From positions 32,001 through 96,000 of the IMG/VR virus record IMGVR_UViG_3300028805_000055: a DNA stretch of 64,000 nucleotides, one strand, 5' to 3'. The notes under the pieces were generated by a model. The model saw nothing but the letters and a program-made list of their open reading frames with translations, was not told the origin of the DNA and did not search any database. Shown piece by piece: positions 26,386 to 36,363 of this stretch. The translations under genes and the position numbers were made by a program. The DNA is from a virus. Lineage: Duplodnaviria > Caudoviricetes. The first letter of the stretch is position 1. Each line of letters opens with the position of its first letter.

Positions 26386-26886
26386 TTAACGAATCACTAT
26401 GACTTTCTCAACAATCTGAATGTCCTCGTAGTAGTCGTCACAGGGGTCATTGATATACCACCTGTCGTTACTTTCTTCGATTTCAAAGTCCTCTTTCAAC
26501 TGCTTCTTGGTACGACCCATGTAGTGAGGGGACTCGTCCAAGATGGTATTCTTCTCATCCTGTAATACTTTCCTTGCTGCCTCTCTCGTGGTACAGGGTA
26601 CAGCATTGATAATGAGTTCACCGTCCACGTTGCTTTCCTGCTGTACTATATAAACTTTCTGGAGGCAGAAGGGATGCTGTATGACGTAATCACCCAACAG
26701 CAGTCTAACTACCTGTTCCCTGTCAGCCAGAGGAATAAGCGTGTGGTAGTCTCTCATCCAATCCATCAAGTCACCGTAGATGGTTTGTCTCTCGCTGTCA
26801 CTCTCCAGACTACTCTTATCCAATAGCTTTTCAACCAAATTTGGATGTTTGGTCAGAATCTCTTGATAAATCTCTGTTACTTCCAT
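26386..26886 (-). CDS. hypothetical early protein
   Basis: Gene run. Confidence 0.8.
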   Translation of the reverse strand: MEVTEIYQEILTKHPNLVEKLLDKSSLESDSERQTIYGDLMDWMRDYHTLIPLADREQVVRLLLGDYVIQHPFCLQKVYIVQQESNVDGELIINAVPCTTREAARKVLQDEKNTILDESPHYMGRTKKQLKEDFEIEESNDRWYINDPCDDYYEDIQIVEKVIVIR

Positions 26887-34444: not shown

Positions 34445-34909
34445 TTAAATTAAGTTCTGAATAATATCCATAGCAGTGCTAATTTCTTCCATAGCAGGCT
34501 CATTACCCTCTGCATAGTTGTAAGCCAGTTGCAGGTTATTGTAGGCTGTTTCCAGATAACTCTTAGCATTTTCGCTAAGTTCACCATTCTGCATTGGAAC
34601 ACGCTGTACGCTAACCTCACCTATTGGCTGAGGAAACTCACCTAAGTGGTCTGTAAGAGTTAACACATCTAAATCGTTCAGTTGTGCCTCTGCAAGAAAC
34701 TCTGCATACTCTGTTCTGCCCTCTTGGTTGGCATCGTCAATCCAGATGTCAATGGTGTCAGCATCGGCTCTTTCAAGGGTATAGTTCCCATCGACAAACT
34801 TGTCTCGCCTAACCATGTTTACAACCATTTCGTGCTGCTCTTGTGACAACTCGAAAGTTTTGATAACGTAACCGCATCCTGCGGTCTGTAAAAGTCCTAA
34901 ATTCTCCAT
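34445..34909 (-). CDS. acidic hypothetical early protein
   Basis: Start MENL after promoter 34938. Confidence 0.8.
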   Translation of the reverse strand: MENLGLLQTAGCGYVIKTFELSQEQHEMVVNMVRRDKFVDGNYTLERADADTIDIWIDDANQEGRTEYAEFLAEAQLNDLDVLTLTDHLGEFPQPIGEVSVQRVPMQNGELSENAKSYLETAYNNLQLAYNYAEGNEPAMEEISTAMDIIQNLI

Positions 34910-35079
34910 ATCTCTTATATTTAATGTTGTTTGACGCTGCAAAATTAGGTAAAATAATCGAAACTACCAAATTTTTTATGTTAAAACTTCTAAAAACAAG
35001 GGGAGCACCCCAATCTGGAGTGCTCCCATCAACCTAACAATCATTATGGAAAACAAACAGCGTTATCACAACGCAACGA

Positions 35080-35153
35080 TGGTGTATCCAGAGGGACTTG
35101 AACCCCCGACCCCCACATCAAATGTGGTGCTCTACCAACTGAGCTATAGACAC
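35080..35153 (-). tRNA. atypical tRNA (anticodon arm 2 nt short; TTG/Gln or undetermined)
   Basis: GTGTCTA-TAGCTCAGTTGGTAGAGCA-CCACA-TTTGA-TGTGG-GGGTC-GGGGGTTCAAGTCCCTC-TGGATAC-ACCA. Confidence 0.8.
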
Positions 35154-35163
35154 TTAAAAAAAT

Positions 35164-35940
35164 GAGCGGGGTGGGACACCAACACCTTGATGGCAAAGGC
35201 GAGTGCGTTAAGCAGCGCAGTTCGGCATCTGTGTGGGTCTCTCCCACCTCACTCTCTAATGGGGCATGGCAAGCGCATAATATACTCGGCTAAATTGGCT
35301 CGCTCGCCTAACATCGCCCCTCTCTGTTGAAAAATGGGCATCCTATAACTAACATCCGCATTGCTTGGCAGTAGAATTGTGCGCACGTTACCCCTTATGC
35401 GGTATTGTCTCAACTTCGGTATGCCCTAATCTCCCTTGGCAGTGGTTTAATAGCCAATACGGATGCGTCCAAATGCGGCTCTCTTATGGCTCTCTTGTAG
35501 CGGCGGTGGGCGCAATGTGCCTCGGAAATGGCGGCTCTCTGGATATTAGTCGCTCATTGACACTTACGGCTCGCGGGACTATCTCATGTGTCCCAAACTC
35601 ACTTGCCCTTTGGCATTAAAGTTTACTCATGTGGCGGCATTGTAACGTTACACGAACTTTACCCTATCTCCACCTTGTTGGGGTTTTTTATTTTATTAAA
35701 ATCGTCTATCATCTAAGTATCATTCCTTAGTTGGGTCGGTCTCTAATCATACTCTATGATGTGGGGATTTTTCCATGCACCCCTTTACATTTTTAAATTC
35801 ATGCTCGATTATATAATACTCCGAAATTATCTAACTATGTACAAGCCCTTTAGGGCGGGGGTCGTTCATTACTATTCATCACTGCATACTTTTAATATTA
35901 ATACTACTTGGTCTGGGGGACTGGCGTCAGCCCGTGCGTG
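35164..35940 (-). ncRNA. cluster of structured non-coding RNAs or one large ncRNA
   Basis: No credible ORF, GC-rich; closed stems at 35164-35254, 35261-35320 and 35336-35426; directly upstream of a tRNA. Confidence 0.6.
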
Positions 35941-35942
35941 AC

Positions 35943-36065
35943 CTAACGCATTGGACGGATTTTGTAGAGCTGTGTCTTAGTACCGTCCCCGTTTTCTCTT
36001 ACTTTGCTTGGCATCGCCACGACTCTGATGTTAGCAATGGAGCGTAGAAATCTCTTTTTACTCAT
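35943..36065 (-). CDS. 40-aa basic peptide (below ORF-track cutoff)
   Basis: MSKKRFLRSIANIRVVAMPSKVRENGDGTKTQLYKIRPMR directly after promoter 36087. Confidence 0.55.
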   Translation of the reverse strand: MSKKRFLRSIANIRVVAMPSKVRENGDGTKTQLYKIRPMR

Positions 36066-36144
36066 AACTCATATCTGTTTTAGTAGTGCAAAGATATAAG
36101 TTTTTTTTGAGAAATCCAAATTTCACGTCACATTTTTGTCATCT

Positions 36145-36363
36145 TTAACAATATTCTGCTTGGTAATCCAGAAACTCCTGCGCATCCAATGTATCACGGA
36201 TTTCTTCTTCTAACTGGTCGTCATTGATGTTACCATCTTCATCTTCGAAGCGTGATAGGGATAATCCCTGCAACTCCACGACGAAATTACCGTCAGCATC
36301 ATGTATGTCAATACCGCTCAATGTATCGGTGGCTACATAGCCTGTTTCACTCTTATACTCCAT
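36145..36363 (-). CDS. small acidic early protein
   Basis: Gene run. Confidence 0.75.
   Translation of the reverse strand: MEYKSETGYVATDTLSGIDIHDADGNFVVELQGLSLSRFEDEDGNINDDQLEEEIRDTLDAQEFLDYQAEYC

Follow-up and report, generated by a model that had tools for sequence, protein, structure and literature searches.

The 64,000-nt window analysed here (bases 32001-96000 of the 153,679-bp IMG/VR virus record IMGVR_UViG_3300028805_000055, CheckV completeness approximately 52%) carries on its minus strand a transcription unit of roughly 1.1 kb (window positions 36120-34992), which encodes a small protein and then continues into a chain of structured RNA domains closed by a tRNA-shaped RNA. We regard it as very probable that the locus is genuine and specifies a conserved, structured non-coding RNA whose family is missing from Rfam. 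The genes surrounding the RNA locus also lie on the minus strand. The promoter (36120-36089), as read from the sequence, consists of a TTTG box (36120-36117), a 20-nt spacer and a TAnnTTTG box (36096-36089), which we take to be the Bacteroidota promoter consensus, and it is kept in the related loci L002, L012, L013 and L015 (related loci are given throughout by their L numbers). Minus-strand genes near the locus carry TTTG...TAnnTTTG promoters upstream as well, and judged from these motifs alone the hosts of the phage are probably Bacteroidota. A motif scan placed the next minus-strand -7 box after this promoter at 34947-34940, and because none was found inside the unit we treat it as a single transcription unit. 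It ends at an intrinsic terminator identified by a terminator scan (35027-34992), a 12-bp GC-rich hairpin (35027-35001) followed by a T run, and the fold z-score of the terminator region (34995-35079) is -3.61. An initial annotation, made from the letters of the window alone, had named the promoter, a 40-aa peptide, three closed RNA modules, a tRNA and the terminator, and all of these lie at the positions it gave.

Downstream of the 40-aa open reading frame (ORF), the minus strand between 35942 and 35154 contains 54 stops over its three sense frames, with a longest open stretch of 58 codons, and no sense-strand frame spans this interval under any of four genetic codes (the standard code and those with TAG=Q, TGA=W or TAA=Q). 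The earlier description of the stretch as ORF-free therefore stands for long frames, but two conserved micro-ORFs (35879-35850 and 35750-35727) lie within it. An 84-aa plus-strand ORF (35365-35619) was rejected because relatives carry 1- and 2-nt indels within it; in alignment, close relatives of this stretch differ by indels of 1, 2 and 9 nt. GC content is raised, as had been claimed, reaching 0.492 in 35154-35700 compared with 0.400 for the whole window (top 0.7% of 547-nt windows), but the rise begins only at approximately 35700. Internal repeats or tandem duplication were considered as a source of the non-coding stretch, and only short motif repeats, none of them significant, were found.

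The strongest evidence for RNA structure comes from module A (35431-35332), in which three nested helices surround a conserved loop of approximately 15 nt with an 8-nt palindrome inside it. A degenerate loop pattern retrieved 10 viral and 55 metagenome loci. Independently of any covariance model, a MAFFT alignment of 17 sequences analysed with RNAalifold gave 21 pairs in module A, 10 of which are compensatory. A covariance model (R1, 19 pairs) built from the MAFFT/alifold alignment scores the module in the window at 122.5 bits. Searching 583 kb of fetched loci with R1 recovered 57 full-length copies, 32 of them distinct, on viral and metagenome contigs from the rumen. In the resulting alignment (A3), which is fitted to R1 and thereby inflates pair counts, 92.1% of cells are paired compared with 66.4% after shuffling, 18 of the 19 pairs have changed on both sides, and the covariation score is 0.655 compared with 0.216 for shuffled alignments and 0.07-0.14 when partners are slid. 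Some 50 of the 583 cells hold G-U or U-G pairs; read from the opposite strand they would become A-C mismatches, and the constraint is therefore on RNA made from the minus strand. As a check of specificity, R1 matched all of the rumen loci, and as a negative control R1 at E≤1 gave no match in 90 kb of marine, soil and prokaryote sequences that share the loop pattern. A scan of 185,579 prokaryote genomes with the loop pattern returned five matches, none of which fit R1, and so yielded no prophage or host copy.

These results bear directly on whether the region might be decayed tRNA or protein-coding debris with chance hairpins. The locus does adjoin a degenerate tRNA, T-arm-like hairpins occur upstream in some relatives, and the folding energy of the whole region is not unusual (797-nt fold, z -1.07). 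However, no tRNA model match other than that at 35083-35153 appears even at E≤1, no frame is open under any code tried, and covariation together with strong conservation across phages that are at most 79% identical elsewhere is incompatible with neutral decay. We therefore give this reading very little credence, and neutral debris is essentially excluded on comparative grounds.

Module A lies within a longer chain of domains, all on the minus strand. Upstream of it, domain U1 (35687-35545) forms three to four helices for which RNAalifold predicted 30 pairs across 12 sequences with approximately three broken cells; one pair of a U1 hairpin is seen as G-C, G-U and A-U, and a 5-bp helix shows U-G, U-A and C-G. 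Domain U2 (35544-35432) contains repeated GAGAGCC motifs (three of the nine minus-strand copies in the whole 154-kb record), is homologous to the matching stretch of other types of the module train, and is linked by nhmmer to L046, L049, L051, L054, L060 and L061. Downstream, module B (35320-35261) has an outer G/C stem, an inner 8-bp stem and a conserved internal loop; it is near-identical in L046, L052 and L068 despite flanks that are only 79-84% identical, and elsewhere its position is taken by variants that share this layout and differ in the inner stem. Rod C (35254-35156) is a 91-nt rod followed by seven U, with 16 distinct homologues. Its base helix is kept through U-G, C-G and U-A changes together with register shifts, forming a perfect 10 bp in L052 and L122, and rods of unrelated sequence fill the same slot in other loci (z -3 to -6 against shuffles). 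Modules A, B and C, the three closed modules named at the outset, fold as then described. Their energy z-scores are -1.13, -1.63 and -3.50, respectively, so that among these three the rod alone beats shuffled sequence. Folding energy alone is weak evidence here, and it is the comparison between loci that is decisive.

Searches against known families returned only tRNA. With Rfam 15, cmscan run at gathering score over the window, and at E≤1 over 34900-36200, found tRNA alone, as did the search of six relatives, and BLAST against the INPHARED phages gave only matches of the tRNA to tRNA-Lys and tRNA-Phe. A structured, multi-module non-coding locus without an Rfam family, as the initial annotation had proposed, is thus upheld by the covariation in module A, the pairing kept in U1 and the tRNA-only Rfam result; the polycistronic nature that it also proposed is putative.

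Relatives fetched through homologues of the 40-aa ORF (76-100% identity) comprised 40 distinct versions of the locus, and the phages that share it are represented by complete genomes of 295-413 kb and by rumen metagenome contigs. The shared order is promoter, small ORF, GC hairpin, micro-ORF, variable centre, tRNA-shaped element, 3' element and terminator. The spacing between ORF stop and 3' element has a bimodal distribution (315-556 nt or 877-925 nt), the window having the long form, and contigs whose 40-aa ORF is 100% identical to that of the window have either this long centre or, in its place, an unrelated one of approximately 250 nt, with break points near 35833 and near 35113, the latter inside the tRNA. 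With different centres behind identical ORFs, the centre thus behaves as an exchangeable cassette, and identical flanks were found to enclose at least five types of centre, unrelated to one another or distantly related. The modules also recur in varied combinations in other phages, which agrees with the earlier description of a train. BLAST and nhmmer revealed parts of the long centre in several of them. L052, which comes from a 412-kb genome, matches 525 nt of the long centre at 79% identity; L046 carries modules B and C at approximately 97% identity beside a different tRNA; in L049, L051, L054, L060 and L061 the match extends from U2 to module B; L057 matches module A, and L055 and L062 match the rod. 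Loci sharing pieces of the long centre are without the 40-aa ORF, save for a remote homologue in L076, and retain the micro-ORFs. On the 3' side of module A there follow a B-type module, single or paired, up to two rods in some loci and none in others, and then a tRNA-like element, joined by short purine-rich linkers.

The short centres S1 (L012:3230-3450 and the same slot in L016, L018, L019 and L021-L034), S2 (L004-L010) and S3 (L013-L015) are mutually homologous (nhmmer E 1e-7 to 1e-15) and have in common a multi-helix fold predicted by alifold and a possible long-range pairing; they look like a second structured-RNA family in the same slot. The long centre showed no nhmmer homology to S1-S3 except in the tRNA and the final 50 nt of the rod. 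Many contigs from a single series of JGI samples (Ga0255059 to Ga0255062; L079, L083, L107, L112, L114, L115 and L118) are only 1-2 kb long and consist largely of the RNA train, which would be evidence of expression if these are metatranscriptome assemblies.

This mobility invites another explanation, in which the modules would be recombination cassettes, selfish or neutral, of a hypervariable tRNA region, maintained at the DNA level and without an RNA function for the phage. The diversity of centres between identical flanks, the mosaic sharing of modules across phages and the absence of module A from three of five complete genomes would all fit such cassettes, as would modules B and C, whose identity of approximately 97% between phages with much more diverged flanks suggests recent transfer. 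Compensatory changes and transcribed-strand G-U pairs, however, show selection on RNA pairing, the loop sequences are conserved, and the leader micro-ORFs are conserved with synonymous variation; we therefore consider purely selfish cassettes distinctly unlikely. What the comparison does show at the level of sequence is that the domains are conserved as minus-strand RNA secondary structure in many rumen jumbo-phage contigs and are exchanged as cassettes between related phages.

The 5' part of the unit carries three short reading frames. The small protein (P0001; 36065-35943) has 40 aa and is strongly basic; its homologues fall into five protein clusters at 76-100% identity on contigs of up to 426 kb, and the nucleotide alignment of the ORF shows synonymous changes. 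Neither this protein nor its neighbours had a match in Pfam, PHROGs or the ESM Atlas. Directly upstream of it lies a very acidic 72-aa protein (36363-36148, minus strand), which is conserved with the locus and also has no family match, and in L076 a remote homologue of the basic protein stands ahead of a different type of train. Just past the 40-aa ORF is a GC hairpin (35933-35917) whose stem pairs are kept or wobble and whose loop is variable in the long-form alignment; it is duplicated in L039.

The two micro-ORFs follow, and their conservation was assessed in the 37 distinct loci that have enough upstream sequence. Micro-ORF 1 (35879-35850; 9 codons) ends in Arg-Pro-Pro-Pro-stop, is arrest-like and lies upstream of module A in relatives. 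It is present in 36 of the 37 loci, usually as Met-Glu-Arg-Pro-Pro-Pro, and its RPPP residues are written in 13 different synonymous codon strings, pointing to selection on the peptide. It is at the peptide level, too, that its C-terminal Arg-x-Pro-Pro is conserved, as in the RxPP arrest peptides. Micro-ORF 2 (35750-35727; 7 codons) ends in Arg-Asp-Arg-Pro-Asn-stop and occurs in 33 of the loci, ending in Arg-Asp-Arg-Pro-Asn or -Tyr, always with an ATG in frame and with an N-terminal part of variable length. It lies within a 41-nt block that is 100% kept in the otherwise 79%-identical L052, and its core of 12 bases is nearly invariant (34 of 35), which may reflect a role at the RNA level. A small hairpin (35783-35763), seen in the sequence and the alignment, stands ahead of micro-ORF 2, and in some relatives a T-arm-like hairpin is found here; a possible pairing of 35766-35757 with the anticodon stem of the tRNA is a 10-nt match at chance level.

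Small ORFs with a C-terminal Arg-x-Pro-Pro carry an established ribosome-arrest motif, and RxPP with Pro as x was recovered in E. coli stalling screens. The RAPP/RxPP arrest leaders (the ApdA, ApdP and SecM class) and TnaC are likewise short ORFs that end in Arg-x-Pro-Pro or in Arg-Pro near the stop and are placed upstream of the sequence they regulate. Those leaders differ in regulating protein genes (for secretion machinery or tryptophanase) and in having longer nascent chains, whereas the micro-ORFs described here have 6-10 codons and precede a non-coding RNA, and their stalling is putative.

At its 3' end the chain runs into a tRNA-shaped RNA (35153-35080; detected by ARAGORN and by Rfam at 58.9 bits), a derivative of tRNA-Lys(UUU) with a 5-nt anticodon loop and an encoded CCA. 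It retains the cloverleaf arms and does not show the combination of 7-nt anticodon loop, U33 and purine 37 expected of a decoding tRNA. Canonical tRNA-Lys(UUU) copies occupy the same slot in L080, L105, L111 and L113 and represent its ancestral state. The anticodon stem of the window tRNA is the same as in L080, while the loop is mutated and 2 nt shorter than that of L002, which has 7 nt with U at position 37. The odd tRNA of the initial annotation thus belongs to a decayed tRNA-Lys lineage rather than to a novel type of tRNA. Relative to the Lys genes, its acceptor stem has changed in several places, with pairing kept by one compensatory and several wobble changes. Because this pairing survived the loss of the anticodon loop, the tRNA shape rather than the decoding function seems to be under selection. 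In many other loci the slot holds tRNA-shaped RNAs that ARAGORN rejects.

Other variants of the slot were also observed. In six loci the tRNA that follows the train has an anticodon loop of 8 nt (L046:10417-10491, L051:548-621, L060:3062-3136, L061:3758-3831, L084:1545-1618 and L110:3857-3931), for which ARAGORN calls a four-base anticodon 'ccaa'; these would be either quadruplet-decoding tRNAs or another non-decoding tRNA shell. In L005 (3510-3640), and also in L007, L009 and L010, a tRNA-shaped RNA with acceptor, D-like and T arms has an insert of approximately 60 nt in place of the anticodon loop. Outside the window, the parent record contains twelve minus-strand matches to the T-loop consensus (region 100000-122000 in window numbering, at approximately 135,000-153,600 of the record), which suggests a large tRNA array elsewhere in the phage.

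Between the tRNA and the terminator lies the most conserved part of the unit across centre types, a 3' element (35079-35029) made of a small hairpin (35074-35060) and two invariant single-stranded blocks. It is kept in every centre type and, used as a search pattern, retrieved 21 IMG/VR loci. Ten of its bases are complementary to the start regions of three minus-strand genes of the record, such as the gene starting at window position 26886. The element had been read as an anti-start element, which we rejected since complementarity to downstream start codons is inconsistent between loci; its strong conservation is what remains. Judged by eye, bases that could pair the module A loop to the 3' element do not covary between locus types.

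Our data suggest a model in which the dedicated promoter would drive the gene for the 40-aa basic protein followed by the two micro-ORFs (RPPP-stop and RDRPN-stop), with the main product being an RNA of approximately 530 nt composed of the independently folding, GC-rich domains U1, U2, A, B and rod C, and with the tRNA-shaped RNA, the 3' element and the terminator closing the unit. Ribosomes stalled on the micro-ORFs at the 5' end would protect or gate the long untranslated RNA, and the 3' tRNA shape would be kept not for decoding but as a substrate for RNase P and RNase Z, whose cleavage would define the end of the upstream RNA. The released RNA would be stable and act in trans in the manner of GOLLD and ROOL, and copies of it may associate with one another through the palindrome in the module A loop. 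As a whole, a stable multi-domain RNA that is gated at its 5' end by micro-ORF ribosomes, trimmed at its 3' end through the tRNA and active in trans is the account we favour, if by a modest measure.

Several observations weigh against this model. The thermodynamic z-scores of A, B, U1 and U2 are unremarkable, and of the further hairpins that had been predicted in 35430-35690, the pairing of U1 is kept across 12 sequences but the fold of U2 is no better than shuffles (z +0.57). The stems of module B variants from different train types could not be aligned by MAFFT, leaving no pair counts for B, and interior pairs of rod C are broken in several relatives. The whole long centre is known from copies at least 94% identical, as are all those linked to the 40-aa ORF, and from the single 79% relative L052, and among the five complete genomes with the 3' element module A occurs once in two and is absent from three. 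Fitting the module A alignment to R1 favours structure, yet the model-independent MAFFT/alifold result agrees with it. Two further points, the stems followed by five U at the end of module A and by seven U at rod C, and the ability of the 5' strand of rod C to pair with either a nearby or a distant copy of the same C-rich segment (forming a competing local hairpin), are compatible with an attenuator.

Under such a cis-acting arrangement, stalling on the micro-ORFs would decide termination at the end of module A and at rod C and so control read-through into the tRNA-like gene and beyond. Two conserved, arrest-like micro-ORFs do lie directly upstream in nearly all loci, an extra C appears jointly in both C-rich copies in relatives, and the combination of rod C, seven U and alternative local hairpin is present in the window and most relatives (it is absent in L052). 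Set against this, all that would be regulated ahead of the strong terminator is a tRNA-like RNA, often a non-decoding one, the conserved loops and three covarying helices of module A exceed what a terminator needs, modules B, U1 and U2 have no U run, and approximately 530 nt of conserved structure would be excessive. An attenuator is therefore a serious but rather improbable alternative to the stable trans-acting RNA that we favour.

The comparison with GOLLD and ROOL, which had been drawn from the sequence at the start, is apt as an analogy. Both are phage RNAs found near tRNA islands that assemble via kissing loops; in GOLLD the linker sometimes includes a tRNA, and the multimers are held together by such loops. 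Like them, the locus described here would give a multi-helix phage RNA of several hundred nucleotides beside tRNA genes, without an associated protein function and derived from rumen or metagenome sources, and it shares with that kind of RNA covariation-supported helices, occurrence on viral (IMG/VR) contigs and a tRNA or tRNA-like RNA directly 3'. The palindromic loop of module A could by analogy play the role of the GOLLD kissing loops, multimerisation being putative here. The differences are also clear. There is no covariance-model match to either family at E≤1, ROOL and GOLLD each form one intertwined fold with pseudoknots whereas here a linear chain of closed modules is swapped between phages, arrest-like micro-ORFs precede the RNA here and not there, and the hosts of ROOL and GOLLD are Lactobacillales whereas here they are probably Bacteroidota.

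Species 1 and 2 of the phage T4 tRNA cluster (rnaC and rnaD) are small stable RNAs of unknown function that are co-transcribed with tRNAs and matured by tRNA-processing enzymes; they are single units of approximately 120-140 nt without sequence relation to the present locus, which has approximately 530 nt of chained domains and leader peptides. Non-decoding tRNA shapes attached to longer structured RNAs are known from the MALAT1-mascRNA type of 3' handle and from the mimics in bacterial Y RNA/YrlA, which have no Rfam match here, and no Ro/Rsr gene was seen in the vicinity. A survey of the intergenic regions of IMG/VR v3 for covarying motifs 29-151 nt long gave 8,495 candidates (PMC10690425, 2023). 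Single modules of the train may be among the unnamed candidates of that catalogue, which gives no description of a multi-module train, its micro-ORFs or its tRNA linkage.

A bolder reading, which we hold to be unlikely, is that the locus represents a new RNA system of interchangeable cassettes gated by two arrest micro-ORFs, with a 3' end set by a non-decoding tRNA shell, in which the cassettes act in trans against host translation or defence. The effectors might then be decoys, or self-assembling RNA particles built via the palindromic loop, and a swappable, trans-acting effector role would explain the rapid exchange between jumbo phages.

GOLLD, ROOL and similar large phage RNAs are poorly understood and comprise a handful of families, to which this locus adds one supported by covariation, from uncultivated rumen phages of 300-400 kb. 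It has features that the known families lack, including modules exchanged as cassettes, arrest-type leader micro-ORFs before a non-coding RNA and a tRNA that keeps its shape while losing its anticodon. The covariance model, the palindromic loop, the two ORFs of 6-10 codons and the natural presence/absence variants offer testable handles on what such RNAs do and on how phages stabilise long untranslated transcripts.

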